Positions 4,228 through 63,038 of a stretch of DNA of 64,000 nucleotides are shown in pieces; positions within the stretch are counted from its first letter, which is position 1, and every line of letters starts with the position of its first letter. Both the position numbers and the translations under genes were made by a program. The stretch comes from Heterodontus francisci. Taxonomy: Eukaryota. Location of the stretch: assembly GCF_036365525.1 (NCBI RefSeq), contig NC_090404.1, forward strand, positions 18,111,134 to 18,175,133, read 5' to 3'. The notes beneath the pieces are model-generated. The model did not search any database. It was not told where the DNA came from and was given only the letters and a program-made list of their open reading frames with translations.

Positions 4228-7200
4228 GGTGAGAACAGAAATTTCAAGAACAGAATAATATGGGGACATTTAAGATGAAATAATTAATCATGTATTACTA
4301 ACAAACTAACTTCGGAGCTGCACAGACAGCTTATCAGTAATGACTTCATAGCTTTAGAGCTTCAGCAGACAGCTTATCAGAAATTAATAGTAGCCTATTC
4401 AGTGCTGTAGGGACAGCTTATCAGTACAAATAGACTAACCAGCAAAAACCTAGCAGGACAGCTGCAGCTGTTGAAGACTAACCCTTTGTATGACAATCAG
4501 CCCAACGTTCCCAGGAGATTCTTTTGGGCCTCCTTATCTCGAGAGACAATGGATACGCGCCTGGAGGTGGTCAGTGGTTTGTGAAGCAGCGCCTGGAGTG
4601 GCTATAAAGGCCAATTCTGGAGTGACAGGCTCTTCCACAGGTGCTGCAGAGAAATTTGTTTGTTGGGGCTGTTGCACAGTTGGCTCTCCCCTTGCGCCTC
4701 TGTCTTTTTTCCTGCCAACTACTAAGTCTCTTCGACTCGCCACAATTTAGCCCTGTCTTTATGGCTGCCCGCCAGCTCTGGCGAATGCTGGCAACTGACT
4801 CCCACGACTTGTGATCAATGTCACACGATTTCATGTCACGTTTGCAGACGTCTTTATAACGGAGACATGGACGGCCGGTGGGTCTGATACCAGTGGCGAG
4901 CTCGCTGTACAATGTGTCTTTGGGGATCCTGCCATCTTCCATGCGGCTCACATGGCCAAGCCATCTCAAGCGCCGCTGACTCAGTAGTGTGTATAAGCTG
5001 GGGGTGTTGGCCGCTTCAAGGACTTCTGTGTTGGAGATATAGTCCTGCCACCTGATGCCAAGTATTCTCCGAAGGCAGCGAAGATGGAATGAATTGAGAC
5101 GTCGCTCTTGGCTGGCATACGTTGTCCAGGCCTCGCTGCCGTAGAGCAAGGTACTGAGGACACAGGCCTGATACACTCGGACTTTTGTGTTCCGTGTCAG
5201 TGCCCCATTTTCCCACACTCTCTTGGCCAGTCTGGACATAGCAGTGGAAGCCTTACCCATGCGCTTGTTGATTTCTGCATCTAGAGACAGGTTACTGGTG
5301 ATAGTTGAGCCTAGGTAGGTGAACTCTTGAACCACTTCCAGAGCGTGGTCGCCAATATTGATGGATGGAGCATTTCTGACATCCTGCCCCATGATGTTCG
5401 TTTTCTTGAGGCTGATGGTTAGGCCAAATTCATTGCAGGCAGACGCAAACCTGTCGATGAGACTCTGCAGGCATTCTTCAGTGTGAGATGTTAAAGCAGC
5501 ATCGTCAGCAAAGAGGAGTTCTCTGATGAGGACTTTCCGTACTTTGGACTTCGCTCTTAGACGGGCAAGGTTGAACAACCTGCCCCCTGATCTTGTGTGG
5601 AGGAAAATTCCTTCTTCAGAGGATTTGAACGCATGTGAAAGCAGCAGGGAGAAGAAAATCCCAAAAAGTGTGGGTGCGAGAACACAGCCCTGTTTCACAC
5701 CACTCAGGATAGGAAAGGGCTCTGATGAGGAGCCACCATGTTGAATTGTGCCTTTCATATTGTCATGGAATGAGGTGATGATACTTAGTAGCTATGGTGG
5801 ACATCCGATCTTTTCTAGTAGTCTGAAGAGACCACGTCTGCTGACGAGGTCAAAGGCTTTGGTGAGATCAATGAAAGCAATGTAGAGGGGCATCTGTTGT
5901 TCACGGCATTTCTCCTGTATCTGACGAAGGGAGAACAGCATGTCAATAGTCGATCTCTCTGCACGAAAGCCACACTGTGCCTCAGGGTAGACGCGCTCGG
6001 CCAGCTTCTGGAGCCTGTTCAGAGCGACTCGAGCAAAGACTTTCCCCACTATGCTGAGCAGGGAGATTCCACGGTAGTTGTTGCAGTCACCGCGGTCACC
6101 TTTGTTTTTATAGAGGGTGATGATGTTGGCATCGCGCATGTCCTGGGGTACTGCTCCCTCGTCCCAGCACAGGCATAGCAGTTCATGTAGTGCTGAGAGT
6201 ATAGCAGGCTTGGCACTCTTGATTATTTCAGGGGTAATGCTGTCCTTCCCAGGGGCTTTTCCGCTGGCTAGGGAATCAATGGCATCACTGAGTTCCGATT
6301 TGGTTGGCTGTATGTCCAGCTCATCCATGACTGGTAGAGGCTGGGCTGCATTGAGGGCAGTCTCAGTGACAGCATTCTCCCTGGAGTACAGTTCTAGGTA
6401 GTGCTCAACCCAGCGGTCCATCTGTTTGCGTTGGTCAGTGATTATGTCCCCCGATTTAGATTTGAGGGGGGTGATCTTCTTGATGGTTGGCCCAAGAGCT
6501 CTCTTCATGCCATCATACATTCCTCTGATGTTTCCGGTGTCTGAGGCCAGCTGAATATGACTGCATAGGTGTTGCCAGTAGTCGTTTGCGCAACGCCTAG
6601 CTGTTCTTTGTGCAGTACTTCTGGCTGCTTTAAGTGCTGCGGATGTTAAATCGCTGGGGGCTTTCTTGTAGTTCAAAAGTGCAATGCGCTTAGCGGCTAT
6701 GACAGGTTCCAGCTCTTCATTATGAGATTCAAACCAGTCTGCATTTCTCTTCGCACTTTTGCCGTAGGTGGTCAAAGCTGACTCATAGATGGCGTCTCTG
6801 ATGTGGGCCCACTTGGTCTCAGCATCCCCTGTGGGAGTGTTTTGAAGGGCTGTTACAAGTGAATTTAGAAATTTTTGTAACAGCTGTGGGTGAGAAATTC
6901 TGCTCGTGTTGATGCGCGGGTGGCCCTTCTGCTTGGAATGATGCAACTTCTTTGGTCTGAGTCTAACCTTGCTGCACACCAGGGAGTGGTCGGTGTCGCA
7001 GTCCGCACTGTGGAAGCTGCGTGTGATTTGAACACTGTTTAAGGCGGCTCGCCTTGTGACAATGAGGTCTAGCTGGTGCCAACGACGTGATCTTGGGTGC
7101 CTCCATGAAACCTGGTGACAGGGTTTAGTGTGAAAGAACGAGTTGGTGATGCAGAGGATATGATAGGTACACAACTCAAGCAGTCTCTGCCCGTTCTCAT

Positions 7201-7947
7201 TCATCCTTCCAACGCCATAGCGCCCAAGGCAGGAGGGCCATGAGTCATGGTCAGCCCCAACCCTGGCATTAAAGTCCCCCAGCAGGAATAGGTGTTCGGT
7301 GTTGGGGATGCTGCTAATGATATGGAGTTGTTCATAGAACTGGTCTTTAGCTTCAGGTGCGGAGCAGAGTGTTGGAGCATAGATGCTGAGTAGGTGTACT
7401 GGACCAGAGGTGGTGAGCAGTCGGATGGACAGTATGCGTTCCGAGCCATTTGAGGGAGGCTCTATCATGCTGAGCAAGGAGTTTCTGATGGCGAAGCCCA
7501 CTCCATGCTGTCTTGGTTCTTCAGGATCCCTGCCCTGCCAGAAGAAGGTGTAGTCTTGCTCTGCTAGAGAGCCACTCGCGGGGAGGCGAGTCTCCTGAAG
7601 TGCTGCAATGTCCACAATGTCCCAGGAGATAGGGGAATAAGAAACTGCTTGAGGAGAGGGCGACAAGGCAGTGCCCCAATCAGGCCCTGACACCAAGAAA
7701 CTGCAAAGTTTGTGAACCAATTGGGAACATAAAGGGGGTGTCACTAATTTGTGAGAAGAACTATAAGAAAGGCTTGAATTCCCTCCTCCAGCACGGAGGA
7801 AGAGGGAGGAGAGCCCAGGTGTTGTTGTTGTTCGCTTTGCTGATGATGTAACCACTAAGTACTACAATAAAGTTTCTTAAAGCTCCAGTCGGACTTCGTC
7901 TCTTTTTGGTGTAACCAATGAGAACATAAAAAAACTGAGATCCAACA
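4228..7947 (+). mobile_element. ERV solo LTR (~610 bp) split by an RTE insertion
   Basis: CAGAC 5-bp TSD (4223-4227 / 7948-7952), ends CCAACA, TATAAG and AATAAA (7866). Same LTR as the provirus at 62408. Confidence 0.9.
4520..7619 (-). mobile_element. Young near-full-length RTE-clade LINE (APE endonuclease + RT; one in-frame TAG at 5792-5794)
   Basis: ALQETR, LGDFNARVG, TDH (EN); NYRGISLL, FIDLTKAFD, FADD (RT). 11-bp TSD TCCCAGGAGAT (4509-4519 / 7620-7630). ORFs 5792-7855 and 4571-5758 are in the same frame. Confidence 0.95.
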
Positions 7948-9253
7948 CAGACCAATATATATAGGTTGAGTGAGTGGGCAAAATCTGGCAGATGGAGTAT
8001 AATGTGGGAAATGTGAAGTTGTTCACTTTGGCAAGAGGAATAAAAAAGCAGAGTTTTACTTAAATAGAGAGGGCTGTATGTATTTTAGTGCATGAGTCAC
8101 AAAAAGTAATAAAGAAGGTGAATGGAACGCTACCCGATTATGAGAGGAATTGAAAATAAAAGTAAGGATGTTATGCTTCAGTTATACAGGGCATTGGTGA
8201 GACCACATCTCGAATACTGTGTGCAGTTTTGGTATCCTTACTTAAGAAAGGATGTAAATGTGTTAAAGGAGGTTTAGAGGAGGTTTACTAGATTGATACC
8301 TGGAATGAGCTTGTTGTCTTATGAGGAAAGTTTGGACAGACTGGGCTTGTTTTCACTGGAGTTTAGAAGAGTGAGGGAGACTTAACTGAAGTATATAAGA
8401 TCCTGAATGGTTTTGACAAGGTGGATGTGGAAAGGATGTTTCCTCGTATGGGTGAGTCCAGAACTAGGGGACACTGTTTTAAAATTAGGGGTCGCCCTTT
8501 TAGGACAGAGATGAGGAGAGATTTTGTCTCTGAGGGTTTGGGCAACCTTGGAACTCTCTGCCTCAGAAGGTGGTGGAGGCGGGGTCATTGAATATGTTTA
8601 AAGCCGGGGTAGATAGATTCTTGTTAGGCAAGGGAATTGAAGGTTATCGAGGGTAGATGGGAGTTTGGAATTCGATACACAAACAGATCAGCCATGATCT
8701 TATTGAATGGCAGAGCAGGCTAGAGGGGCAGAATGGCCAATTTCTGCTCCTAATTCGTATGTTCATATGTATGACCAATTCCGAGTGTTTGTTTTTGCCT
8801 TCGTGGGATATCTTAGCAGAGACTACTTGAGAACTGACACAGCTCATTTGACATGGTTTAAAATTAATGGTGCAGGATCAGTAGCTGGCAAGTCACTGGT
8901 CTGCAGCAAAAACATTGGTCTGTCAATAGGAAATTGAAACTTGCTTCCATTTACACAACAGTGTGTTTGAAGTAATTTCTGAAAACCCTGCACAAACTGA
9001 TTACTGTATGTGAATATCCTGCAGTGAGCATGAGCTGTATAAACTGAATATGTCCTGTACTTTGCAGCAACTGAAGTGATCTGGAATTTCCACTTATCGG
9101 TTTGCTCAGGTGTATGGCTGAATTCCATTCATTGTTCATCTTCACTTTCACTGTCTACTGCCCCAGTCACACTGTGAACCTTGAGTCAGTGTGAAGCTGT
9201 CTTTTGCACCACACTGATGCAAGGCAAGGAGTATAACTCTGGCCATCTTTCTT

Positions 9254-13695: not shown

Positions 13696-13696
13696 A

Positions 13697-14070
13697 AGCC
13701 CGCCGCCCTCTCCCCCGCGACCACCTCCCCCTCGGATTCAGACCGGTCTGGTCGCGCATGCTCACCTCACACCGCCCGCCAGGCTGATGGACATCAGTTC
13801 CGGACCAATTGGAAGAGCCGTGGGGGGGGGGGCGGGGCTGGATGCCAGCTCGGGCCACGGGTCCTCCAAGGAATCGGAGCTTGCGAGGGGGCGGGGCCTC
13901 GGAAATGTCCCGCCCCACTCGCGCTCTTGGTCGGCAAAGGCCGTCATAGACACGGAAATTGCGTTCTCAGGTCAGAGATCAAGAGACTTGTGCGCAGACT
14001 CGTTTTCCTCCTGGGCTGTTTTACTGGAGTCGTGTTGCTGAGTGTGTCTAAACTCTGTCTCCCTATCCCG
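13697..14070 (+). promoter_or_regulatory. CpG-island promoter and non-coding exon 1 of ZF copy 2
   Basis: CpG-rich; GCGCATGC (NRF1-like), CCAATTGG, GGGGCGGGG GC boxes, CGGAAAT (ETS-like). Candidate donor CCG|GTAATG at 14071; conserved in all units. Confidence 0.7.
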
Positions 14071-14182
14071 GTAATGTCGGTGGATTGGAGGTTGCTGTGA
14101 GTGTTGGACTATGTTGCCTTTCCTCATTCTTCCTCCTTCTCCCACTCCGAGTTCCAGGCTGCAGGCTCTGGTGGCTCAATGC

Positions 14183-14305
14183 ACCTGTAACGTTAACCCT
14201 GTTTCTCTCTCCACAGATGCTGCCTGACCTGCTGAGCATTTCCAGCATTTCCTCCTTTTAATTTCAGATTTTCAGCATCCCCAATATTTTGGTTTTATTT
14301 TATTG
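14183..14305. mobile_element. Short interspersed-repeat fragment resembling a Penelope-like terminal repeat (also ~32604, ~44736, ~56548)
   Basis: ACGTTAAC..TTTCTCTCTCCACAGATGCTGCCTGACCTGCTGAG..TTTCCAGCATT motif. Family assignment is from recollection, not a search. Confidence 0.45.
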
Positions 14306-14640
14306 CAAGTGTTGCTCACAGAACTGAGTCAAGAAACACAGACGGACCAGTTAAGAGCTGGTGTTTATTGGGAGTGGGAGTTGGATGTGGCATTTGCTCT
14401 CTAACCTCCTGTGTTGGTCTTTTTTGTTGCATCAGTTTGATCTGGAGTGGAGATGGAGGAGAAGCAGCTTTAATCCCGAGAACTTGTGAGCCCAGTCGGG
14501 CCCAACAGTTTCCAATGTGAGACGGTCAAGGGTGGGGAGGCCGCTCAATAAACACCAACCACTCAATGTGAAAGAGTATTGTTTCAGTAACAAGTATTTC
14601 TGTGGAGGCTTTTAAGCCATTTTACATATACAGAAGTTGT

Positions 14641-15776
14641 TCCTTCATTCTTGGGAGATGGCCGTCACTAGCCAGACCAGCATATATTGCCAGTCCCGTG
14701 CTGTCCATCGAGATGGTGATGGTGGGCCTTCTTCTTAAACCGCTGCAGTCCGTGTGGTGAAGGTGCTCCCACAGTGGTGTTTGGGAAGGAGTTACAGGAT
14801 TTTCACCCAGTGATGGAGAAGGAATGGTGATATATGTCCAAGTTAACATCAACCTGTATTTATATAGCACCTTTAATGTAATAAAATGTACCAGAGCATT
14901 TCATAGGAGTGTTATAAAGCAACATTTGACACTGAGCCACATAAGATATTCGGGCAGATGATCAAAACCTTGATCAAAGAGATGTGTTATAATCAGTGTC
15001 TGAATCACGGAAGGTGAGGTAGAGAGGATTAGGGAGGGATTTCCAAAACTTATGGCCTTGGCAGCTGAAGTCACGGCCACCTGTGATGGAGGAATGAAAA
15101 GCAGGGATGTTCAAGGTGTCAGAATTAGATGAGCCCTGATCTCTCGGAGGGTTGTAGGTCTGGAGGAGATTATAGAGATAGTGAGGGGTGAGGGAATGGA
15201 GGGATTTGAAAGCAAGGATGAGGATATTGAAATTGAGGTGCTGCTTAACTGGGAGCCTGTGTAGGCCAGTGAGCACAGTGGTGATGTGTGAACAGGACTG
15301 GGTTCGAGTAAGGACACAGACAGCAGAGTTTTGGATGATCTCAAGCTGACAGAGTAGAATGTGGGAGGCCGGCCAGGAGTGTGTTAGAATAGTCAAGTTG
15401 AGAGGAAAGAAATACATGGATGTAAGTTTCAGAGGTAGATGAGCTGAGACAGTGGTGATGTTACTGAGGTGGAAATAGGTGGTCTGAGTGATGGCACCGA
15501 TTTGCAGTCGGAATTTCATCTCGGGGTCAAATATGACTAAGGTTATGAGCAGTCTGGTTTAGCCTCAGACAGTTTCCAGGGAGAGGGATAGAGTTGGTGA
15601 CTAGAGACAGGAATTTGCAGCAGGAGCTCAAGACAATGGCTTCAGACTTCCAATATTTAATTGGAGGTAATTTCTGTTCATCCAGTACTGGATGTCAGAC
15701 AAGTCAGGATGCTGTGTGACTTGGAGGGCAACGTGGAGGTGATGGTGTTCACATACACCTGATACCCTGGTCCTTC
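14641..15776 (-). mobile_element. LINE 3'-end fragment split by the L2 insertion (present in each intron)
   Basis: ...TATATGTCCAAGT resumes as CAAGTCAGGATG... after the L2, with CAAGT on both sides. Confidence 0.55.
14844..15699 (-). mobile_element. L2-clade LINE 3' fragment (intronic, antisense)
   Basis: LSDIQYWMNRNYLQLNIGKSEA, LTGLHRLPVKQHLNFNILILAFKSLH, GGRDFS..GHKFWKSLP; tail GTGCTATATAAATACAGGTTG. Confidence 0.85.
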
Positions 15777-16116
15777 TGGATGATGGAAGTTGAGGGTTTG
15801 GGAGGTTCTGTCAAAGTTCTGGTCGAGTTGTACATATATGAAATACCTCTCCTCTCCCTGCCCCTCCTCCTCCCTCTCTTTCCTCCCAAAGAGAGCAGAG
15901 TCTTGTGTAGGTCCAGACTGGGTGGGAACTTCCCTTCCCTGAAGGACATTAATGAACCAGTTGGGTTGTACATCAATCCAGCAGCTTTCATGGTCACTTT
16001 TTCTCGTACTGCCCCCAAAAATTACCAGATTCATTCAGCTCCATTTCACACACTGCCTTTGTGTTTTTGTGAGTTCTGTCACAATTTTTTTTTCTGTTTT
16101 TAAATCAATTTCACAG

Positions 16117-18422
16117 GGTTTTCGAAGGGGAGGAATTGCAGCCGTGAAATGCAAAGCAAACATCTGATCGGGATCTGAAGTCGTTGCCCAATTTAGCGTA
16201 ACCCGAAAACCACTGGATTTTGAACGTGTTAGGAAAAAGCACTGATCACAGTGGGGAGAAACTGTACACGTGTTCTGTGTGTGGCCAAGGTTTTAGCCGA
16301 TCATCTGGCCTGTCGAAACACAAGTGTAGTCACACTGGGAAGAAACCATGTAAATATGGGGACTGTGGGAAGGGATTGAAGTATCCAGTTGAGCTGGAAA
16401 CTCATTCACGTAGTCGCACCCTGGAGAGTCCGTTCACCTACTCCGAGTGTGGGAAGGGATTCACTCAATCATCCAACCTGCTGGCACATCAACGGGTTCA
16501 CGCTGACAAGAGACATTTTAAATGTCTAGACTGTGGGAATTGCTATTCAGGTTTTGCGGAATTGATGTCCCATCAACGTGTTCACACTGACGAGACCATT
16601 CAGGTCCACTCACTGCGGGACTGGGTTCAGGCAATCCTCTGATCTCACTGTACACCAACATATTCACACTGGGGAGAGGCCGTTCACCTGCTCTGAGTGT
16701 GGGAAAAGATTCACTCAGTCATCAAACCTGCTGACACACCGGCGAGTTCACACTGGGGAGAGGTCATTCTCCTGCTCTGAGTGTGGGAAAGGATTCGCTC
16801 AGTTATCCACCATGCTGACACACCAGCGAGTTCACACTGGGGAGAGGCCATTCACCTGCTTTGAGTGTGGGAAAGGATTCACTCAGTCATCAAACCTGCT
16901 GATACACCAGCGAGTGCACACTGGGGAGAGGCCGTTCACCTGCTCTGAATGCGGGAAGGGATTCACTCGGTCCTTCGACCTTCTGACACACCAGCGAGTT
17001 CACACTGGGGAGAGGCCGTTCACCTGCTCAGAGTGTGGAAAGGGATTCAAAACTTCATCTAACCTGCTGGCACACCAGCGAGTTCACATTGGGGAGAAGC
17101 CGTTTCCCTGCTCAGAGTGTGGGAAGGAATTCAAAACTTCATCCAACCGGCTGAGACACCAGCGAATTCACGTTGGGGAGAGGCCGTTCACCTGCTCAGA
17201 GTGTGGGAAGGGATTCAAAACTTCATCGAACCTGCTGTCACACCAGCGAGTTCACATTGGGGAGAGGCCGTTCACCTGCTCAGAGTGTGGGAAGGGATTC
17301 AAAACTTCATCGAACCTGCTGTCACACCAGCGAGTTCACACTGGGGAGAGGCCGTTCACCTGCTCAGAGTGTGGGAAGGGATTCAAAGCTTCATCCCAGC
17401 TGCAAAGACACCAGCGAGTTCACACTGAGGAGAGGCCATTCACCTGCTCTGAGTGTGGGAAGGGATTCAAAACTTCATCCGAGCTGCAAAGACACCAGCG
17501 AGTTCACACTGGGGAGAGGCCATGCACCTGCTCAGAGTGTGGGAAGGGTTTCAAAGCTTCATCCATCCTTCTGGCACACCAGCGAGTTCACACTGGGGAG
17601 AGGCCATTCTCCTGCTCTAAGTGTGGGAAAGGATTCACTCGGTCATCCCACCTGCTGAAACACCAGCGAGCACACACTGGGGAGAGGCCATTCACCTGTT
17701 TGGTGTGTGGCAAGGAATTCGAAACTTCATCCGATCTGCTGAGACACCAGCGAGTGCACACTGGGGAGAGGCCGTTCACCTGCTCTGCATGTGGGGAGGG
17801 ATTCAAAACTTCATCCCACCTGCTGATACACCAGCAAGTTCACACTGGGGAGAGGCCGTTCACCTGCTCAGAGTGTGGAAAGGGATTCAAAAGTTCATCT
17901 AACCTGCTGAGACACCAGCGAGTTCACATTGGGGAGAGGCTGTTCACCTGCTCAGAGTGTGGAAAGGGATTCAAAACTTCATCTAGCCTGTTGTCACACC
18001 AGCGAGTTCACACTGGGGAGAGGCCATTCACCTGCTCTGAGTGTGGGAAGGGATTCACTCGGTCATCCCACCTGCTGAGACATCAGCGAGTTCACACTGG
18101 GGAGAGGCCATTCACCTGCTCTGAGTGTGGGAAGGGATTCACTCGGTCATCCCACCTGCTGACACACCAGCAAGTACACACTGGGGAGAAGCCATTCACC
18201 TGTTCGGTGTGTGGCAAGGAATTCAAAACTTCATCCGAACAGCTGACACACCAGCGAGTTCACACTGGGGAGAGGCCGTTCACCTGCTCAGAGTGTGGGA
18301 AAGGATTCACTAAGTCATCAAACCTGCTGATACACCAACGAGTACACACTGGGGAGAGGCCGTTCACCTGCTCAGAGTGTGGGAAGGGATTCCCTCAGTC
18401 CTCCAGTCTTCTGACACACTAG
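16117..18422 (+). pseudogene. C2H2 zinc-finger array gene, copy 2 (21 core fingers; frameshift ~16592; TAG in last finger)
   Basis: ORFs 16220-16642 and 16578-18422 are offset by a 2-bp deletion. CAG>TAG at 18420 removes the last His. In-frame CCACCATG at 16812 could start a shorter protein. Confidence 0.8.
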
Positions 18423-18836
18423 CAAGTTCACAAGTAGATCGGGGATGTGAAGTTTCTGCCAAATGGCGGATTTCCAACATTGGGGTTTCGGAAATCATCT
18501 AATGGTTTCTCCCTTTCCAACCTTTACTGCTGATAGTTCTGATTTTCTTTAATGCCGGTACAACCACAAACCATTTCTAAGTCGTCTTTGTTTTTTATTT
18601 TCTTCCACCTCGGTGGAAATGAGCTTCAACCAGGAAAGCAAGTGTTTGAAACTGCATACTCCTTCACAACTTCAGTGTGTCAGTCTTCTGTAAATGGCAA
18701 AACAGGAGGTGTGTGTATACTCAGAGCAGTCGTGGGGAAGGTGTTAGAATCGATCATTCAGGAGGCTCTAACTGGTCACTTATAAAAACTCAATGTAATC
18801 GGGAATAGTCAGCACAGTTTTGTGAAAGAGAGATCA

Positions 18837-20066
18837 CTTCAACATAGCGGCGCCTCATCAGACCCCTTTCCTATCCTGAGTAGCGTGAAACAGGACTATG
18901 TTATCGCACCCACATTTTTGGGATTTTCTTCTCCCTGCTGCTCTCACATGCGTTCAAGTCTTCTGAAGAAGGAATTTTCCTCCACACAAGATCAGGGGGC
19001 AGGTTGTTAAACCTTGCCTGTCTAAGAGCGAAGTTCAAAGTACGGAAAGTCCTCATCAGGGAACTCCTCTTTGCTGACGATGCTGCTTTAACATCTCACA
19101 CTGAAGAGTGCCTGCAGAGTCTCATCGACAGGTTTGCGGCTGCCTGCAATGAATTTGGCCGAACCATCAGCCTCAAGAAAAGGAACATCATGGGACAGGA
19201 CGTCAGAAATGCTCCATCCATCAATATTGGCGACCACGCTCTGGAAGTGGTTCAAGAGTTCACCTACCTAGGCTCAACTATCACCAGTAACCTGTCTCTC
19301 GATGCAGAAATCAACAAGCGCATGGGAAAGGCTTCCACTGCTATGTCCAGACTGGCCACGAGAGTGTGGGAAAATGGCGCACTGACGTGGAGCACAAAAG
19401 TCCGAGTGTATCAACCCTGTGTCCTCAGTACCTTGCTCTATGGCAGCGAGGCCTGGACAACGTATGTCAACCAAGAGCGACGTCTCGTTTCATTCCATCT
19501 TCGCTGCCTCCGGAGAATACTTGGCGTCAGGTGGCAGGACCGTATCTCCAACACAGAAGTCCTCGAGGCGGCCAACATCCCCAGCATATACACCCTACTG
19601 AGTCAGCGGCGCTTGAGATGGCTTGGCCATGTGAGCCGCATGGAAGATGGCAGGATCCCCAAACACACATTGTATAGCGAGCTCGCCACTGGTATCAGAC
19701 CCACCGGCCGTCCATGTCTCCGCTTTAAAGACGTCTGCAAACGCGACGTGAAGTCCTGTGACATTGATCACAAGTCGTGGGAGTCAGTTGCCAGCGTTCG
19801 CCAGAGCTGGTGGGCAGCCATAAAGGTGGGGCTAAAGTATGGCGAGTTGAAGAGACATAGCAGTTGGCAGGAAAAAAGACAAAAGCGCAAGGAGAGAGCC
19901 AACTGTGTAACAGCTCCGACAAACAAATTTTTCTGCAGCACCTGTGGAAGAGCCTGTCACTCCAGAATTGGCCTTTGTAGCCACTCCAGGCGCTGCTCCA
20001 CACACCACTGACCACCTCCAGGTGCTTACCCATTGTCTCTCGAGATAAGGAGGCCAAAGAAAGAAA
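18837..20066 (+). mobile_element. 5'-truncated RTE LINE, unit 2
   Basis: Same junctions as 2604-3834; 335-aa RT ORF 19004-20011. Confidence 0.93.
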
Positions 20067-32113: not shown

Positions 32114-32115
32114 CA

Positions 32116-44217: not shown

Positions 44218-44219
44218 CG

Positions 44220-46672: not shown

Positions 46673-49600
46673 GGTTTTCGAAGGGGAGGAATTGCAGCCG
46701 TGAAATGCAAAGCAAACATCTGATCGGGATCTGAAGTCGTTGCCTAATTTAGCGGAACCCGAAAACCACCGGATTTTGAACGTGTTGGGAAAAAGCACCG
46801 ATCACAGTGGGGAGAAACTGTACACGTGTTCTGTGTGTGGCCAAGGTTTTAGCCGATCATCTGGCCTGTCGAAACACAAGTGTAGTCACACTGGGAAGAA
46901 ACCATGTAAATATGGGTACTGTGGGAAGGGATTGAAGTATCCAGTTGAGCTGGAAACTCATTCACGTAGTCGCACCCTGGAGAGTCCGTTCACCTACTCC
47001 GAGTGTGGGAAGGGATTCACTCAATCATCCAACCTGCTGGCACATCAACGGGTTCACGCTGACAAGAGACATTTTAAATGTCTGGACTGTGGAAATTGCG
47101 ATTCAGGTTTTGCGGAATTGATGTCCCATCAACGTGTTCACACTGACGAGACCATTCAGGTCCACTCACTGCGGGACTGGGTTCAGGCAATCCTCTGATC
47201 TCACTGTACACCAACATATTCACACTGGGGAGAGGCCGTTCACCTGCTCTGAGTGTGGGAAAGGATTCGCTCAGTTATCCACGCTGCTGATACACGAGCA
47301 AGTACACACTGAGGAGATGCCGTTCACCTGCTCTGAATGCGGGAAGGGATTCACTCGGTCCTTCAATCTTCTGACGCACCAGCGAGTTCACAATGGGGAG
47401 AAGCCGTTCACCTGCTCAGAGTGTGGGAAGGGATTCAAAACTTCATCTAGCCTGCTGTCACACCAGCGAATTGACATTGGGGAGAGGTCATTCACCTGCT
47501 CAGAGTGTGGGAAGGGATTCAAAACTTCATCCCACCTGCTGAGACACCAGCAAGTTCACATTGGGGAGAGGCCGTTCACCTGCTTAGAGTGTGGAAAGGG
47601 ATTCAAAACTTCATCTAACCTGCTGTCACACCAGCAAGTTCACATTGGGGAGAGGCCGTTCACCTGCTCAGAGTGTGGGAAGGGATTTAAAACTTCATCT
47701 AACCTGCTGTCACACCAGCGAGTTCACATTGGGGAGAGGCCATTCACCTGTTCACAGTGTGGGAAGGGATTCAAAACTTCACCCCACCTGCTGAGACACC
47801 AGCGAGTTCACACTGGGCAGAGGCCATTCACCTGCTCAGAGTGTGGGAAGGGATTCAAAATTTCATCCCACCTGCTGAGACACCAGCGAGTTCACACTGG
47901 GGAGAGGCCATTCACCTGCTCAGAGTGTGGGAAGGGATTCAAAACTTCATCCACCCTGCTGATACACCAGCGAGTTCATTCTGGGGAGAGGCCATTCTCC
48001 TGCTCTGAGTGTGGGAAAGGATTCACTCGGTCATCCCATCTGCTGACACACCAGCGAGTTCACACTGGGGAGAGGCCATTCTCCTGCTCTGAGTGTGGGA
48101 AAGGATTCACTCGGTCATCCAATCTGCTGACACACCAGCGAGTTCACACTGGGGAGAGGCCATTGTCCTGCTCAGAGTGTGGGAAAGGATTCACTCAGTT
48201 ATCCACCCTGCTGACACACCAGCGGGTTCACACTGGGGTGAGGCTGTTCACCTGCTGTGAATGCGGGAAGGGATTCACTTGGTCCTTCAACCTTCTGACA
48301 CACCAGCGAGTTCACACTGGGGACAGGCCATTCAACTGCTCAGAGTGTGGAAAGGGATTCAAAACTTCATCTAACCTGCTGTCACACCAGCGAGTTCACA
48401 TTGGGGAGAGGCCGTTCACCTGCTCAGAGTGTGGAAAGGGATTCAAAACTTCATCTAACCTGCTGTCACATCAGCGCGTTCACACTGGGGAGAGGCCGTT
48501 CACCTGTTCTGAGTGTGGTAGGGGATTTAAAACTTCATCTAACCTGCTGTCACACCAGCGAGTTCACATTGGGGAGAGGCCGTTCACCTGCTCAGAGTGT
48601 GGAAAGGGATTCAAAACTTCATCTAACCTGCTGTCACATCAGCGCGTTCACACTGGGGAGAGGCCGTTCACCTGTTCTGAGTGTGGTAGGGGATTTAAAA
48701 CTTCATCTAACCTGCTGTCACACCAGCGAGTTCACATTGGGGAGAGGCCGTTCACCTGCTCAGAGTGTGGAAAGGGATTCAAAACTTCATCTAACCTGCT
48801 GTCACACCAGCAAGTTCACACTGGGGAGAGGCCGTTCACCTGCTCTGAATGTGTGGAAGTGAGCAGAACGACATGGCACTATGCTGGATGGGAAATATAG
48901 CCAAGTTAGGAGTAGTCACTTTGCTGAGCTCTGATGAAATGATTTAAAGCTTGAGAAACTGCAATGAAATAGTTAAAAGTAAAGGCTGAGAGTGTGAGAT
49001 CGTATAAACTTACAGGCACTGGTAATTGCAAGGACATTTATTCATTCATGACTTGATTGTGTGACTCCTTGTGGTTTGGAACAAATGGATTCCTGTGAGA
49101 GATGCTGGCCATCCCTGTGTGAGTGATGATAAGGAATGAAAGGCCACACTATCACTGTATACTGTTGCTGCTTGGTGTTACTTCATGATGTGACTTGATA
49201 GAGATTACAGGATCCCAGGACTTATGACAATTGTGGGAAGCAAAAGCAGTATCTGTGGGAATCAAAATCAGTATCTTGTTTCTAACTCCTCTTCCTTTGC
49301 TAATTGTCTTAATGTCTGTTTTCTTTTAATCTTGCTGATACAAAACGATATTTTATTAGTAACAAGTATGTATTGAGAATGGAGTGTATTGTAACCTCAG
49401 TAACAGATGTACTGCATGTCACCACGTGGGTGAAGTCGAATTGTACCGCACTGATTGGTTAAACAAGGAGGTGTAGCATGAATCTTAATGTATAAACAGT
49501 AGTACCTGTATCACAAACTTCACTTACTCTGGGGGGGGACCCGACAGACTCTGGTGGAGTCAGTGCCGCTGTTCTCAGAGTAAGTCCGCTGGCGACTGCG

Positions 49601-50036: not shown

Positions 50037-50922
50037 CAGTCGTGGGGAAGGTGTTAGAATCGATCATTAAGGAGGCTCCAACTGGGCACTTATAAAAACT
50101 CAATGTAATCGGGAATAGTCAGCACAGTTTTGTAAAGGGTAAATCGTGTTTAACCAATTTACTGGAGTTCTTTGAAGGAGTAACATGCGCTGTGGATAAA
50201 GGGGAGCCCGTTAACGATTGTACTTGGATTTCCAGAAGGCATTTGACAAGGTGCCACATAAAAGGTTATTGCACAAAGTAGAAACTCATGGTGTAGTGGA
50301 TAACATATTAGGATAAATAGAAGATTGGCTGGCAGAAAACAGAGAGTATACATAAATGGGTCCTTTTCTGATTGGCAGGATTTGACGAGTGGAGTCCTGC
50401 TGGGGCCTCAACTTTTTCCAATTTATATCAATGACTTAGATGAGGGGAGTGTAGGCATGGTAGCTAAATTGGCAGATGACAAAAAGATAGGTAGGAAAGT
50501 ATGTTGTGAAGAGGACATAAGGAGGTTGCAGACCAATATATATATATAGGTTGAGTGAGTGGGCCAAACTTGGCAGATGGAGTATAATGTGGGAAATGTG
50601 AAGTTGTTCACTTTGGCAAGAAGAATAAAAAAAGCAGAGTATTACTTAACTAGAGATGGCTCTAGGTATTTTAGTGCATGAGCCACAAAAAGTAATAAAG
50701 AAGGCGAATGGAACGCTACCCCTGATTATGAGAGGAATTGAAAATAAAAGTAAGAATGTTATGCTTCAGTTATACAGGGCATTGGTGAGACCACATCTCA
50801 AATACTGTGTGCAGTTTTGGTATCCTTATTTAAGAAAGGATGTAAATGTGCTGAAGGAGGTTCAGAGGAGGTTTACCAGATTGATACCTGGAATGAGCTT
50901 GTTGTCTAATGAGGAAAGGTTG
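50037..50922 (+). mobile_element. CR1 host A, unit 4 - uninterrupted (no RTE, no ERV LTR), 3' end deleted
   Basis: Empty sites GTAAAGGGTAAATCGTG (~50132) and TTGCAGACCAATAT (~50526). Confidence 0.88.
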
Positions 50923-51386: not shown

Positions 51387-54300
51387 CAAGGCAGCTAAAA
51401 TGGCCAACTGAGACCTGGTCCCTTTTAATACAAAGCAAGCTAACTGGAAAAGCACTTGAGGTTTATTCCTTGTTGCCAGGTGGGAGTTCATCACATTATG
51501 AACTGACCAAAAATGCTATCCTCGGGCATCTGAATTAGTACCCAAAGCCTACCGCCAAAAGTTTAGAACCCTCAAAAAGCAAGCTAATCAAACTTATCTG
51601 GAGGTAAGCAGCTGGCTTTTGACCGGTGGCTGAGGGCTCTTAAAATACAGCTCAGCTATGAGACTCTCAGGGGAGTAATTCTGTTCGAGGAATTTAAAAA
51701 CTCTCTCCCACTCTCAATAAAGACCCATGTAGAGGAGCAGTGGGTTCAGGGAGCCCGGCAAGCGGCCGTTCTGGTTGATGAGTTTTCTTTAATATGTAAG
51801 TCCGTTTCCCAGGGGAGAACCTTTCCTAATCACCTCCACAAATCCAAAAACGACAAATTGTGGGAAGGTGATCTCCACCCAGCCAATCCTGAGAGAGAAA
51901 GGAAAGCAGGAGACCCAGGGGGCCCTCCTGCAGCCAAGAAGGAAGGTGCTGTGAACAAGAGTGAGAACTGGAGACCTGTGTGCTTCCATTGTAATAAAGC
52001 AGGGCATTTAAAAGCTGACTGCTGGAAACTAAAGGGGAAACCAATATGTTTAATCAGGGCACACCTGATCAGTGAAGACAGGGACCTGATGCAAAGCACA
52101 GCAGAACAAGCTGTGGCTTTAACTACAGTAAGAGTCAGACCCAGGAAGCTTACTACGGCCTGCGCAGGAAAAGCTAATAGGATTCCTGAAGGTTATCGGG
52201 TTTTGTGTCTGAAGGGAAAGTGACCCCATACTCCTTGAGTGGGGCAAGCAAGCCCATAGTGATTCTTTGGGAACACGAGATCCCTTCTTAGGGACACAGG
52301 GGCCACTAGATCCCTTTTACTGGGAAAAGACCTGACCTTTTCCCCAGAGCATGCAGTGAACACTAAAATGGTGGTGAATGGTATTGGAGGTCAGTGTATG
52401 CCTGTACCTGTACACCGGGTGAACTTGGAGTGTGACCTGGTTTCGGGATCGGTGAACGTAGAGATTGTCCCTAGTTTGCCTGTGGACAGGGTTGACCTGC
52501 TCCTAGGTAACGGTCTGTTGGGGGTGAAGATGGTAGTCCCCCAGACGTGAAAGAAAGACCGCAGGAGGTCAGAGAGACAGGGCCGTGGCAGGAGACGGTT
52601 CCCTGCAGTTTCCCTAAATGTGTAGTGGATCAGGCCATGAGCAAACCAGTTCCTGCAGAGGAGACTGCATTGGCAGGGGAGGTGGTGGAAGCAGATACGA
52701 TAGCGACGTTGAAGAGACATTTTGACAAACATATGAATAGGAAGGGAATAGAGGGATATGGGCCACGGAAGTGCAGAAGGTGTTAGTTTCAACAGGCATC
52801 AAGATCGGCGCAGGCTTGGAGGGCCGAATGGCCTGTTCCTGTGCTGTACTGTTCTTTGTTCAAAGCCAGTTCCTGCAGAGGAGACTGCATTGGCACTATG
52901 TGCAAATGAGCTCGAGATCTGCCTGTCCGAGACTTTCTTTGGAAAGTTAGGAGACCCAGGGAATGAATTAAATGGATTTTCCCGAGGTGAGGCTCAGCGA
53001 GCTGACCCAGTATTGTGAGAGTTAGCACAGGCTTCCCAGTCTGAAAGTGAAGCAGAGGGAGTCCCTGATTGCTACTGTTTAAAAATGAGGTACTGATGAG
53101 GAAATGGAATTCTCCTCACAGACCTGAGGGAAAAGAGTGGACAGTAGTTCATCAGTTAATGGTGCTACAGCGGTACTGGGGAGAAATGTTGAGAAGGGCC
53201 CATGAGACTACAGTAGCTGAACATGCCGGTATATGAAAGACCAAAGCCCACATAAGACAGTAGTTTGACTGGCTAAAACTCCACAAAGATGTGGTGGAGT
53301 ACTGCAGGATTTGCTACATGTGCCAGGTTGAGGAGAAACCCCAACCTACAGTGAAACCTCCTAAGTCCTGTACCGGTGTTTGGAGGACCCTCCAGCCAAA
53401 GGGTGGTGAACTGTACGGGATCCATGCTGAGAACAAAAGGGGACAAGCAGGCACACGGCTGGCATAGGTTTGGAAAGAGAAGGGGAAAAAGTGACCAAGA
53501 GGGCAGGTTAAAGAAAGTCCGGGAGGAATCCGGATAAAAACCCCTACTGTGTGGTCAGCCAACCACAAAAAAATTGAAAAGTCAGACCCCGCCTCTAGGG
53601 GGCACAGATACATGAGGGTGTTGCCTCACCTAGTCGAAGTGCCAGGGGAGAGTGCAGTCGAGTCTGCACACATACCTGCAGGTAGGAGTGTCCCAGAGAA
53701 CAGAGGGGAGATTAACCAAGAATCCTACCCCACAGTCAGAGGAAAAGTTCACCACCTATCCCCTGAAGGCAAAAGGCTTTGCATGATTCAGCAAAGCACT
53801 GAGAGAGTGTTTAGGATAGACCCACCCACCACGAACTCTCCTGGGGGGAAAAATTGACACCAACAGGAACAAAACCTGAGGCAGTCATGGCAATGGGCAA
53901 ACTGAAGAAGAGCTTCCCCCAAAGAACCACTTGGTTACTGGGATGCCAAAAAAGGGAACATCAAAGGAACACCGGCAACCAGAAAAGACAATTCGAATAG
54001 GCTTTAAGATTGCTGAAGGAATGGAAATGAATGAGAGAAATGTATCTTATATTTCTCTCAAAATTGTAATGAAATGTGCCATTTTTTTTTCAAATCGCAT
54101 TTCATTCCCCTGGGTGTGGAGGCGTCATGCAGGCCCCCACCTGCCAAGAATGAGACACATTAATTTTGCCACATGGACATTAAAACTTATCGTTGTTGCT
54201 GGGAAGAAAAGAGGGCCTATCACAAGGAATTGCCAGGCCCCTCGCCAGAAAGGCCTTTTTTGCATACCAGCAGACAGCATTGGAACAAAGGAACCAGTCC

Positions 54301-58065: not shown

Positions 58066-58586
58066 CAAGTCAGGATGCTGCGTGACTTGGAGGGCAACTT
58101 GGAGGTGATGGTGTTTGCGTACACCTGATAACCTGGTCCTTCTGGATGATGGAAGTTGAGGGTTTGGGAGGTTCTGTCAAAGTTCTGGTCGAGTTGTACA
58201 TATATGGAATACCTCTCCTCTCCCTGCCCCTCCTCCTCCCTCTCTCTTTCCTCCAAAAGAGAGCAGAGTCTTGTGTAGGTCCAGACTGGGTGGTAAGTTC
58301 CCTTCCCTGAAGGACATTAATGAACCAGTTGGGTTGTACATCAATCAGCAGCTTTCATGGTCACTTTTTCTCGTACTGCCCCCAAAAATTACCAGATTCA
58401 TTCAGCTACATTTCACACACTGCCTTTGTGTTTTTGTGACTTCTGTCACAATTTTTTTTTCTGTTTTTAAATCAATTTCACAGGATTTTCGAAGGGGAGG
58501 AATTGCAGCCGTGAAATGCAAAGCAAACATCTGATCGGGATCTGAAGTCGTTGCCCAATTTAGCGTAACCCGAAAACCACCAGATT

Positions 58587-60386
58587 TTGAACGTGTTCGG
58601 AAAAAGCACCAATCACAGTGGGGAGAAACTGTACACGTGTTCTGTGTGTGGCCAAGGTTTTAGCCGATCATCTGGCCTGTCGAAACACAAGTGTAGTCAC
58701 ACTGGGAAGAAACCATGTAAATATGGGGACTGTGGGAAGGGATTGAAGTATCCAGTTGAGCTGGAAACTCATTCACGCAGTCGCACCCTGGAGAGTCCGT
58801 TCAACTACTCCGAGTGTGGGAAGGGATTCACTCAATCATCCAACCTGCTGGCACATCAACGGGTTCACGCTGACAAGAGACATTTTAAATGTCGAGACTG
58901 TGGGAATTGCTGTTTAGGTTCTGTGGAACCGATGTCCCATCAACGTGTTCACACTGACAAGAGACCATTCAGGTCCACTCACTGCGGGACTGGGTTCAGG
59001 CAATCCTCTGATCTCACTGGACACCAACATATTCACACTGGGGAGAGGCCGTTCACCTGCTCTGAGTGTGGGAAAGGATTCGCTCAGTTATCCACCATGC
59101 TGACACACCAGCGAGTTCACACTGGGGAGAGGCCCTTCACATGCTCTGAATGCGGGAAGGGATTCACTCAGTCCTTCAACCTTCTGACACACCAGCGAAT
59201 TCACACTGGGGAGAGGCCGCTCACCTGCTCTGATTGTGGGAAGGGATTCAAAACTTCATCCGAGCTGCAAAGACACCAGCGAGTTCACACTGAGGAGAGG
59301 CCATTCTCCTGCTCTGAGTGTGGGAAGGGATTCAAAACTTCATCCGAGCTGCAAAGACACCAGCGAGTTCACACTGGGGAGAGGCCATTCTCCTGCTCTG
59401 AGTGTGGGAAAGGATTCGCTCAGTTATCCACCATGCTGGCACACCAACGAGTTCACACTGGGGAGAAGCCGTTCACCTGCTCAGAGTGTGGAAAGGGATT
59501 CAAAACTTCATCTAACCTGCTGTCACACCAGCAAGTTCACACTGGGGAGAGGCCATTCACCTGCTCTGAGTGTGGGAAGGGATTCACTCGGTCATCCCAC
59601 CTGCTGACACACCAGCGAGTACACACTGGGGAGAGGCCATTCACCTGCTCTGAGTGTGGGAAGGGATTCACTCGGTCATCCCACCTGCTGAGACACCAGC
59701 GAGTACACACTGGGGAGAGGCCATTCACCTGTTCGGTGTGTGGCAAGGAATTCAAAACTTCATCCAAACAGCTGACACACCAGCGAGTTCACACTGGGGA
59801 GAGGCCGTTCACCTGCTCAGAGTGTGGAAAGGGATTCAAAACTTCATCTAGCCTGCTGTCACACCAGCAAGTTCACACTGGGGAGAGGCCGTTCACCTGC
59901 TCAGAGTGTGGAAAGGGATTCAAAACTTCATCTAGCCTACTGTCACACCAGCGTGTTCACACTGCGGAGAAGCCGTTCAGCTGCTCAGAATGTGGTAGGG
60001 GATTTAAAACTTCATACGAAGTGCTGTCACACCAGCGAGTTCACACTGGGGAGAGGCCGTTCACCTGCTCAGAATGTGGGATGGGATTCACTCATTCATC
60101 CACCCTGCTGGCGCACCGGCGAATTCACACTGGGGAGAGGCCGTTCACCTGCTCCGAGTGTGGGAAGGGATTCACTTGTTCATCCACCCTGCTGGCGCAC
60201 CGGCGAGTTCACACTGGGGAGAGGCCGTTCACCTGCTCCGAGTGTGGGAAGGGATTCACTTGTTCATCTAACCTGCTGAAACACCAGCGAGTTCACACTG
60301 GGGAGAGGCCGTTCACCTGCTCTGAATGCGGGAAGGGATTCCCTCAGTCCTCCAGTCTTCTGACACACCAGCGAGTTCACAAGTAG
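58587..60386 (+). CDS. C2H2 zinc-finger protein, copy 5 (only continuous frame; 5 partly degenerate + 16 core fingers)
   Basis: 599-aa open frame; GACAAGAGACCA lacks the 2-bp deletion. Start uncertain: GTG at 58593, first ATG at 58932. Confidence 0.8.
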
Positions 60387-60675
60387 ATCGGGGATGAGAA
60401 GTTTCTGCCAAATGGCGGATTTCCAACATTGGGGTTTCGGAAATCAACTAATAGTTTCTCCCTTTCCAACCTTAACTGCTGATAGTTCTGATTTTCTTTA
60501 ATGCCGGTACAACCACAAACCATTTTTAAGTCGTCTTTGTTTTTTATTTTCTTCCACCTCGGTGGAAATGAGCTTCAACCAGGAAAGCAAGTGGTTGCAA
60601 CTGCATACTCCTTCACAACGTCAGTGTGTCAGTCTTCTGTAAATGGCAAAACAGGAGGTGTGTGTATACTCAGAG

Positions 60676-62407
60676 CAGTCGTGGGGAAGGTGTTAGAATC
60701 GATCATTAAGGAGGCTCCGACTGGGCACTTATAAAAACTCAATGTAATCGGGAATAGTCAGCACAGTTTTGTGAAAGGGAGATCACTTCAACATGGCGGT
60801 ACCTCATCAGACCCCTTTCCTATCCTGAGTGGCGTGAAACAGGGCTATGTTATCGCACCCACATTTTTGGGGATTTTCATCTCCCTGCTGCTCTCACATG
60901 CGTTTAAGTCGTCTGAAGAAGGAATTTTCCTCCACACAAGATCAGGGGGCAGGTTGTTCAACCTTGCCCGTCTAAGAGCGAAGTTCAAAGTACGGAAAGT
61001 CCTCATCAGGGAACTCCTCTTTGCTGACGATGCTGCTTTAACATCTCACACTGAAGAGTGCCTGCAGAGTCTCATCGACAGGTTTGCGGCTGCCTGCAAT
61101 GAATTTGGCCTAACCATCAGCCTCAAGAAAAGGAACATCATGGGACAGGACGTCAGAAATGCTCCATCCATCAATATTGGCGACCACGCTCTGGAAGTGG
61201 TTCAAGAGTTCACCGACCTAGGCTCAACTATCACCAGTAACCTGTCTCTCAATGCAGAAATCAACAAGCGCATGGGAAAGGCTTCCACTGCTGTGTCCAG
61301 ACTGGCCAAGAGAGTGTGGGAAAATGGCGCACTGACACGGAACACAAAAGTCCGAGTGTATCAACCCTGTGTCCTCAGTACCTTGCTCTATGGCAGCGAG
61401 GCCTGGACAACGTATGTCAGCCAAGAGCGACGTCTCATTTCATTTCATCTTCGCTGCCTCCGGAGAATACTTGTCATCAGGTGGCAGGACCGTATCTCCA
61501 ACACAGAAGTCCTCGAGGCGGCCAACATCTCCAGCATGTACACCCTACTGAGTCAGCAGCGCTTGAGATGTCTTGGCCATGTGAGCCGCATGGAAGATGG
61601 CAGGATCCCCAAAGACACATTGTACAGCGAGCTCGCCACTGGTATCAGACCCACCGGCCGTCCATGTCTCCGCTTTAAAGACGTCTGCAAATGTGACGTG
61701 AAGTCCTGTAACATTGATCACAAGTCGTAGGTGTCTGTTGCCAGCGTTCACCAGAGCTGGTGGGCAGCCATAAAGGTGGGGCTAAAGTATGGCGAGTCGA
61801 AGAGACAGCAGTTGGCAGGAAAAAAGACAAAAGCGCAAGGAGAGAGCCAACTGTGTAACAGCCCCGACAAACAAATTTTTCTGCAGCACCTGTGGAAGAG
61901 CCTGTCACTCTAGAATTGGCCTTTATAGCCACTCCAGGCGCTGCTCCACACACCACTGACCACCTCCAGGCGCTTACCCATTGTCTCTCGAGATAAGGAG
62001 GCCAAAGAAAGAAAGAAATCATGTTTAACCAATTTACTGGAGTTCTTTGAAGGAGTAACATGTGCTGTGGATAAAGGGGAGCCCGTTAACGACTGTACTT
62101 GGATTTCCAGAAGGCATTTGACAAGGTGCCACATAAAAGGTTATTGCACAAAGTAGAAACTCATGGTGTAGTGGGGTAACATATTAGCATGAATAGAAGA
62201 TTGGCTGGCAGAAAACAGAGTATACATAAATGGGTCCTTTTCTGATTGGCAGGATTTGTCGAGTGGAGTCCTGCAGGGGCCTCAACTTTTTCCAATTTAT
62301 ATCAATGACTTAGATGAGGGGAGTGTAGGCATGGTAGCTAAATTGGCAGATGACACAAAGATAGGTAGGAAAATATGTTGTGAAGAGGACATAAGGAGGT
62401 TGCAGAC
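60676..62407 (+). mobile_element. CR1 host A, unit 5 (5' part)
   Basis: Paralogous to host A up to the ERV integration site. Confidence 0.83.
60786..62014 (+). mobile_element. 5'-truncated RTE LINE, unit 5
   Basis: Same junctions as the other units; ORF 60771-61730. Confidence 0.93.
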
Positions 62408-63020
62408 TGTGATAACAGAATTTTCAAGAGCAGAATAATATGTGGACATTTAAGATGAAATAATTAATCATGTATTACTAACAAACTAACTTCGGAGCTG
62501 CACAGACAGCTTATCAGTAATGACTTCATAGCTTTAGAGCTTCAGCAGACAGCTTATCCGAAATTAATAGTAGCCTATTCAGTGCTGTAGGGACAGCTTA
62601 TCAGTACAAATAGACTAACCAGCTAAAACCTAGCAGGACAGCTGCAGCTGTTGAAGACTAACCCTTTGTATGACAATCAGCCCAACGTTCCCAGGAGATA
62701 GGGGAATAAGAAACTGCTTGAGGAGAGGGCGACAAGGCAGTGCCCCAATCAGGCCCTGACACCAAGAAACTGCAAAGTTTGTGAACCAATTGGGAACATA
62801 AAGGGGGTGTCACTAATTTGTAAGAAGAACTATAAGAAAGGCTTGAATTCCCTCCTCCAGCACGGAGGAAGAGGGAGGAGAGCCCAGGTGTTGTTGTTGT
62901 TCGCTTTGCTGATGATGTAACCACTAAGTACTACAATAAAGTTTCTTAAAGCTACAGTCGGACTTCGTCTCTTTTTGGTGTAACCAATCAGAACATAAAA
63001 AAAACTGAGATCCAACAACT

Positions 63021-63038
63021 TGGTGTAGTCGGCAGGAT
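63021..63038 (+). promoter_or_regulatory. Primer binding site complementary to tRNA-Ser 3' end
   Basis: TGGTGTAGTCGGCAGGAT versus the vertebrate tRNA-Ser(AGA/TGA) end ATCCTGCCGACTACG-CCA: 17/18, the mismatch giving a G:U pair. Lies 3 nt after the LTR's CA. Confidence 0.88.

Follow-up and report, generated by a model that had tools for sequence, protein, structure and literature searches.

How does a single retroviral integration come to stand as a provirus, as a solo long terminal repeat (LTR) and as an empty target site in neighbouring copies of one genomic segment? The question is raised by a 64,000-nucleotide stretch of the shark Heterodontus francisci (contig NC_090404.1, here C34:18111134-18175133, in a 6.0-Gb genome), referred to below as the window; labels beginning with L denote other stretches of that genome. 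The window consists of five tandem units of 12-18 kb, each with one C2H2 zinc-finger (ZNF) exon. Genome-wide, the segment behind this exon is present in nine copies at 95-100%, the next-best copy being at 87%; units U1 to U7 lie in tandem, and U8 and U9 are inverted, 0.4 Mb away. The integrated element, an endogenous retrovirus (ERV), sits about 2 kb behind the exon. We find one site in four structural states, units that are mosaics, and a solo-LTR unit (U3) that is closest to the provirus-bearing unit (U5) on both sides of the element. The reading that we favour, with a probability of roughly 0.6, is that one class I ERV insertion was amplified together with its unit by unequal crossing-over and then lost its interior by LTR-LTR recombination at least twice, while short conversions shuffled the LTRs and their flanks.

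One integration site in four structural states

The 5-bp target site CAGAC is single in U4 (50529-50533; this and all window features below are on the plus strand unless noted), where it lies in a fossil of a long interspersed nuclear element (LINE) with no old RTE insertion upstream. It is doubled around a solo LTR in U1, U2 and U3, and it stands ahead of the provirus in U5. The initial annotation of the window had described exactly this: an empty site in unit 4, solo LTRs in units 1 to 3, and an LTR with primer binding site and internal region in unit 5. Beyond that annotation, four more units and a fourth state were found outside the window, so that the nine units comprise five solo LTRs (U1, U2, U3, U7 and U9), one provirus (U5), two empty sites (U4 and U6) and a stump (U8). 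Each of the five solos is one whole LTR between intact CAGAC copies. In U1 the LTR (4228-7947, between CAGAC at 4223-4227 and 7948-7952) is split by a young full-length RTE on the minus strand (4520-7619), which encodes endonuclease and reverse transcriptase (RT) in a frame broken by one stop and has an 11-bp target duplication (4509-4519 and 7620-7630). The solo LTR of U2 occupies 20460-21069 (CAGAC at 20455-20459 and 21070-21074) and that of U3 39381-39989 (CAGAC at 39376-39380 and 39990-39994). The first LTR base is altered differently in U1 (G, 4228) and U2 (C, 20460), though these units are close relatives.

A scan of the 6.0 Gb with patterns for the two junctions returned exactly seven left and seven right exact matches, all within the nine-unit family, while the reversed patterns used as controls gave no left and no right matches. 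The empty-site pattern had two full matches in the genome, U4 and U6, with a single CAGAC each. The host sequence is an abundant LINE fossil; 14 of 14 dispersed copies of it have no LTR at the CAGAC site, which makes the empty state the pre-integration one. All seven filled units have the same target duplication and the same flanks at both junctions; they derive from a single integration that spread by segmental duplication. A hot spot hit by independent insertions was ruled out, as the array LTRs have diagnostic bases in common and are 97-99% alike, whereas none of the other family members scored (40 from among 1286 candidates) exceeds 95%. An old, 5′-truncated RTE insertion upstream of the site provides a second marker. 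It is found in U1 (2597-3835), U2 (18830-20067), U3 (37761-38988) and U5 (60779-62015) of the window and is absent from U4, U6 and U8.

The provirus of unit 5

The 5′ LTR of the U5 provirus (62408-63017, with TG...CA ends) is preceded by CAGAC (62403-62407) and followed by a primer binding site (63021-63038) that can pair with the 3′ end of tRNA-Ser(AGA) at 17 of 18 bases. The match is 18 of 18 in three other family copies, and all four loci fetched for a matching 3′ end were called tRNA-Ser. A leader and the start of a broken gag fill 63039-64000, and the provirus runs on past the window into L011 and L012. The initial annotation had proposed a search past position 64000 for a 3′ LTR and a second CAGAC, and both are there, 11 kb beyond the window end: after a polypurine tract, the 3′ LTR spans L012:427-1023 (C34:18185560-18186156, window-equivalent 74427-75023) and is followed by CAGAC (75024-75028). 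That this LTR is the solo of the next unit was ruled out, since it is preceded by a polypurine tract and env-like sequence and not by the left flank. U5 has all the hallmarks of a provirus, namely two LTRs with TG...CA ends, a primer binding site, a polypurine tract and a target duplication, the last also seen as 5-bp duplications in other copies of the family (L008, L009, L047/L048, L057, L060, L063 and L064). The whole element measures 12.6 kb, including a nested LTR element of 4.7 kb.

Five Pfam domains were found above cut-off (RVP, 7e-9; RVT_1, 4e-29; RNase_H, 1e-21; rve, 1e-11; MLVIN_C, 2e-13), and the matches for gag (zf-CCHC, 0.0045) and env (HR1-HR2, 7e-4) were below the curated cut-offs. 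The gene order is gag, protease, RT, RNase H, integrase, env, with all frames broken. Among solved chains, pol best matched 'RT/RNase H p80' (E 4e-83, versus 1e-16 for Pr125Pol and 2e-10 for Ty3), entries that we take to be murine leukaemia virus (MLV) or xenotropic MLV-related virus (XMRV; the 3p1g entry names XMRV). The nearest named proteins come from sharks and bony fish, including Heterodontus francisci (89% and 88%) and Pristiophorus japonicus (77%). Judged by these matches, the U5 provirus is a class I (gamma/epsilon-like) ERV with a pol closest to MLV-type enzymes.

Flank phylogeny and the number of losses

Do the five solo LTRs form one clade? A tree of the old RTE from six units, with three other RTE copies as outgroup, joined U1 with U2 (support 99/97) and U3 with U5 (100/98), and rejected a solo clade (P value of the approximately unbiased test, p-AU, 3e-8). 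The grouping of units 1 and 2 versus 3 and 5 that had been read from RTE variants, including a derived stop in 3 and 5, is confirmed with this outgroup: U1 and U2 have the derived TGGAGC (19388 and 19392 in U2), and U3 and U5 the derived stop and its neighbour (19779 and 19782). Downstream of the element, where U7 and U9 were not included as their sequence ends too early, U3 grouped with U5 in two blocks (93/96 and 98/96), and a group of U1, U2 and U3 was rejected in three of four blocks (p = 0.002, 1.5e-85 and 0.0003). The solo units 1, 2 and 3, whose grouping throughout would have contradicted the initial annotation, therefore do not form one clade throughout. Quartets uniting U3 and U5 against U1 and a further unit x point the same way, with counts of 14:3:1 on the left (x = U9), 8:2:5 on the right at 1.6-3 kb and 46:7:3 on the far right (x = U8); over the stretch where U5 looks U4-like they are 4:4:2. 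U3 and U5 also have a common deletion of about 430 bp. By these flanking sequences, no unit is closer to the solo U3 than the provirus unit U5, and none is closer to U5 than U3, whether to the left or to the right of the element.

A solo that is sister to a provirus on both sides means that the interior was removed or moved in at least two events. If loss is irreversible, the RTE tree calls for three or four collapses; if transfer between units is allowed, two events suffice; and U8 adds one more. The claim that LTR-LTR recombination happened at least twice, or that the solo state moved between paralogs, was sound as an either/or, and our data fit both arms. We take at least two LTR-LTR losses of the interior as the minimum and three or four as the probable number. 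The order of events might have been as follows. An empty unit would have received the ERV, then the old RTE and a 4-bp loss in the 5′ LTR, before the duplications began, and unequal crossing-over would have amplified the ERV together with the zinc-finger unit. Separate collapses, with both recombining LTRs in one provirus or one in each of two paralogs, may then have occurred in the U1/U2, U3, U7 and U9 lines, while short gene conversions shuffled LTRs and flanks. U8 would have lost its interior by another route, a join at a 4-base microhomology, and the likely ancestor of U4 and U6 would be a unit into which the element never inserted.

A patchwork inside the LTR

The LTR alignment has 35 variable sites, 8 of them informative, and 18 of the 28 informative pairs are incompatible (p 0.001-0.014 under a rough no-recombination simulation, which used one tree shape and 45 mutations and kept only runs with 6-10 informative sites). 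The best of 10395 trees needs 14 steps, versus 17 when the solos are held together, and no site among the 35 unites the five solos against the two leader-bearing LTRs (U5 and U8). At position 6, the solos U3 and U7 have a derived base in common with the leader-bearing U5 and U8; it is absent from the solos U1, U2 and U9, and 19 of 19 family copies have the other base. Further derived bases are common to U3, U7 and U8 (294 and 593), to U3 and U8 (-147 and -143) and to U7 and U8 (+42 and +46). Those that link U3 and U7 to U8 may be conversion patches, or may reflect a lineage that directly links the U8 stump and these solos. In addition, a 4-bp indel near position 60 is in its short form in the five solos and both 5′ LTRs, and in its long form in the 3′ LTR of U5 and in 16 of 17 readable family copies; at face value, this would place the crossovers to its right.

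Several observations weigh against repeated collapse in place. The 4-bp indel lies in a short slippery repeat, recurs in one unrelated family copy (L063), and has in U3 the form of an unrelated copy. Bases private to the 3′ LTR of U5 occur in none of the solos and no crossover is directly visible, so that mapping crossovers from differences between the 5′ and 3′ LTRs, as the initial annotation had suggested, fails. The nearest downstream block (U1:9541-11765) groups U1, U2 and U3, weakly (54/42). Trees of the three 390-bp segments closest to the element remain compatible with a solo clade (p-AU 0.147, 0.136 and 0.144), although such segments carry too little signal. In the core, from the RTE 3′ end to +110, the quartets are split and place U3 with U8 at 4:0:0 against U5 and U1; with its core siding with U8, U3 looks like the recipient of an imported patch rather than a collapse in place. 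Finally, on the left flank U9 is ancestral at four sites where U1 to U8, empties included, are derived, so that the empties are not a clean outgroup.

These points bear on a second explanation, possible but in our view doubtful, in which the interior was excised only once and either the solo state then spread or the provirus returned to the U5 frame, in a double crossover or an extended tract of conversion between paralogs, bounded at about -660 to +1700 from the LTR. The U3 core would fit such a transfer, as it has U8/U7-type derived bases at -147, -143, 294 and 593, absent in U5, inside U5-like flanks. The near flanks are compatible with a solo clade, the array is visibly mosaic, and two events suffice, which equals the minimum under repeated loss. 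However, the five solos have no derived LTR base in common, and position 6 divides them. On the right flank, U7 is derived at +42 and +46 with U8 alone, whereas U1, U2, U3 and U9 share +90 with U5; one solo junction would then need further crossovers within 90 bp of the LTR.

Recombination between units and the empty sites

A neighbour-compatibility test over 427 sites gave a value that none of 500 permutations reached (0/500 as low as observed). U6 differs from U4 at 13 of 5096 positions on the left and at 94 of 2657 on the right, where it is U1-like (29/2661). Together these comparisons point plainly to recombination across the unit. Between U1 and U2, the old RTEs are about 2% different and the spacers 1.1% (96/8691).

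Such exchange complicates the origin of the empty sites. U4 and U6 have the ancestral base at -35, where all seven filled units are derived, and on the right flank they are the most distant units, at 4.9% from the filled ones versus 3.1% among the filled. We considered whether they are secondarily empty, either because the element was lost precisely between its 5-bp repeats or because an empty allele or paralog overwrote the site. This would account for the derived bases that U4 and U6 have in common with the other units of U1-U8 at four left-flank sites against the filled U9, and for a left-flank distance between empty and filled units (3.35%) near that among filled units (2.76%). We nevertheless hold it to be quite improbable, since both units lack the old RTE, are ancestral at -35, have 10 derived sites of their own in the host fossil and sit on the longest branch for the right flank. 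Most likely, as far as these substitutions indicate, the empties represent a never-invaded lineage that later swapped patches with its neighbours.

The near identity of U4 and U6, 99.7% over 5 kb, could also suggest an assembly artefact with haplotypes or alleles placed end to end. This seems exceedingly improbable: all other units are 1-5% apart and have private insertions and deletions, the ZNF exons ahead of U4 and U6 differ (88% versus 98.5% to the exon of U2), and there is not one N in the window or in 20 neighbouring stretches (L011-L030). Public sequencing runs were also consulted, and 20 of the 24 listed hold part of window 60300-63300. In run X1 (RNA by guess, from the same sample as the best DNA holders and so not independent), contigs at 96% identity span the left junction by 29 and 35 letters to either side, short of the required 31, and another contig runs out of the LTR end into leader of the U5 type. 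Two runs from a second organism, X9 and X13, yielded contigs that reach across the left junction by only 15 and 10 letters of flank, as well as LTR pieces that are 97-99% alike and have the 4-bp indel in its long form. In four runs compared at 90% identity, the signal was swamped by LINE copies. We treat these contigs as a hint, not counted as evidence, that a relative has the same insertion and that transcripts of the ZNF gene perhaps read into it.

The U8 stump

The fourth state, on the minus strand at L038:1830-2670 (C34:18581822-18582670), consists of a 5′ LTR, primer site, 220 bp of leader, an LTR tail and CAGAC, with no old RTE. After 220 bp the leader gives way, at a microhomology of 4 bases, to the final 13 bp of the LTR, leaving a 13-bp direct repeat 233 bp apart. 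This arrangement suggests a two-step collapse, compatible with repeated LTR-LTR loss elsewhere in the array: a microhomology deletion would give the U8 state, and a second deletion between the 13-bp repeats would give a perfect solo made wholly of 5′ LTR, as in U7 and perhaps U3. The U8 LTR has derived states in common with U7 (6, 294, 542, 593, +42 and +46), and U8 has others in common with U3 (-147, -143, 6, 294, 547 and 593); with the other 5′ LTR, that of U5, it has only position 6 in common. The distances of the U8 LTR are 9 to U3, 10 to U7 and 13 to U5, each of 608. Bases of 5′ type up to position 593 of 610 are hard to obtain by ordinary crossover, and the U5 and U8 leaders differ at 4 of 220 sites, in line with their LTR divergence.

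We nonetheless think this route unlikely. The sites are few and homoplasy is heavy; the U8 states at 69 and 547 are missing from U7, which, unlike U8, contains the old RTE; and the right flank of U3 is not U8-like. A 300-bp conversion of the U8 LTR by a solo accounts for the same bases, position 593 lies in an A-run, and the reverse process, capture of a leader into a solo, gives the same picture. If the two-step route were true, U8 would be a preserved intermediate, the array would hold substrate, intermediate and product together, and some solos credited to LTR-LTR homologous recombination would have arisen otherwise.

Age of the insertion

Between the 5′ and 3′ LTRs of U5 there are 8-9 base differences over about 590 positions, together with four gaps; divergence within six further pairs of adjacent LTRs from this family is 1.2-3.5%. 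With a rate of 7e-10 per generation (confidence interval 1.4-14e-10; PMC10587355), a divergence of 1.5% would correspond, to an order of magnitude, to about 11 million generations. With the rate of 2.2e-10 per year assumed in PMC4422223, the U5 divergence would amount to about 34 million years, again as an order of magnitude.

A second LTR element, 4.7 kb long (L011:2007-6679, window-equivalent 66007-70679), interrupts the RT gene of the U5 provirus. It has TG...CA LTRs with 9/472 differences, a 5-bp target duplication with one mismatch and a tRNA-Ser-type primer site, and its LTR family has many copies at 95-97%. It is necessarily younger than its host, yet its LTRs are 1.9% diverged versus 1.4-1.5% for those of the host. 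That the nested LTRs are no less diverged hints that the outer LTRs were partly homogenised; if so, both age figures are lower bounds.

The zinc-finger array

The ZNF exon of U1 (2-2204) contains an 84-bp repeat array (430-2199) with 19 fingers in the main frame. The other exons of the window lie at 16202-18422 (U2), 34630-37368 (U3, 27 fingers), 46704-48900 (U4) and 58569-60386 (U5, a 605-amino-acid open frame). When their frames were compared (at window 344, 16577, 35004, 47133 and 58944, L012:8509, L013:9912, L037 and L038), the early part of the exon was out of frame with the finger array in Z1, Z2, Z3, Z4, Z6 and Z7, and the exon was open throughout in Z5, Z8 and Z9 (605, 510 and 549 amino acids, respectively). 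Splicing around the frame break could occur. The open form is present in both leader-bearing units, U5 and U8. Directly upstream of ZNF2, ZNF3, ZNF6 and ZNF7, 1.5-2.5 kb are only 0.2-1.4% diverged versus 3-6% for the other units (U1 spacer coordinates about 13900-16660; also in L012 and L013), which looks like a recently spread block. The segment behind the exon also has about 30 less similar copies (78-87%) at C34:19.7-45.6 Mb, all on this one contig, which makes the nine units a young branch of a chromosome-wide ZNF family.

Other insertions and deletions distinguish the units. A young LINE at 24890-30200, on the minus strand, is inserted in U2 only; it has a 971-amino-acid endonuclease-RT frame, an esterase-type first open reading frame (ORF1) and, at its 5′ end, a 204-bp unit repeated 5.9 times at 99%, and a 99%-alike copy lies in L017/L018. 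A decayed Gypsy-like gag at 51588-52223, with paralogous places in every spacer, contains a CCHC knuckle and a Pfam SCAN match (E 1e-5, just under the cut-off); it shares the strand of the next ZNF exon and lies about 6 kb upstream of it. A retrotransposon origin has been proposed for SCAN-ZNF genes. The right flank has three different deletions, in U5 (from +110, in the L012:1134 region), in U4/U6 (window 50920) and in U3 (window 40505), and those of U5 and U4/U6 end within a few bases of each other.

Comparison with known systems

Human amylase and C4 genes offer precedents for the process; the novelty lies in the instance itself, in how many replicates it offers, in solos that fail to form one clade in linked sequence, and in the stump. 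Empty site, provirus and solo LTR are the three states described for dimorphic human ERV (HERV) loci, where LTR-LTR recombination likewise leaves the junctions unchanged and LTR conversion is noted; there they are alleles at one locus in a population, whereas here they are paralogs in one assembly (PMC6298018). Closer is primate amylase, in which AMY2B lacks the ERV, AMY1 has it and AMY2A shows an ectopic deletion of it (PMC12363942, citing Samuelson 1990). There too, one ERV integration was duplicated with a gene unit, is absent, complete or deleted across paralogs, and is nested with an earlier retroposon insertion that orders events; in the account of PMC12363942, however, the tree is resolved and shows a single deletion, and a regulatory role upstream of the gene is proposed. 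The shark array differs, by our reconstruction, in its nine units, five solos that would not form a clade, a stump state and an element downstream of the exon. Long and short C4 genes of the RCCX modules likewise have an ERV, HERV-K(C4), present or absent among tandem modules, with unequal crossover and conversion, but are described with two states only, insertion or none (PMC8362596). In young mouse clusters of KRAB zinc-finger protein (KRAB-ZFP) genes, C2H2 clusters multiply resident ERVs by segmental duplication and bear recombination scars (PMC12575710); those are mammalian KRAB genes, and the word 'solo' does not occur in the main text of that paper, while in the shark array no KRAB was seen and none was searched for. 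The element itself resembles class I (gamma/epsilon-like) ERVs of fish and sharks, with MLV-like pol, a shark host and an LTR divergence of a few percent, as in U5 (PMC4422223).

A literature search, with most subscription journals outside it, turned up no account of such a pattern from sharks or from ZNF arrays. The locus amounts to a natural replicate experiment, in which one integration was carried into seven paralogs and the interior was kept in only one. Within this tandem zinc-finger array, the provirus, solo or empty state does not follow one tree, and solo counts and LTR dating in such arrays therefore mislead. It extends to a shark the ERV-and-duplication behaviour of the mouse KRAB-ZFP clusters.

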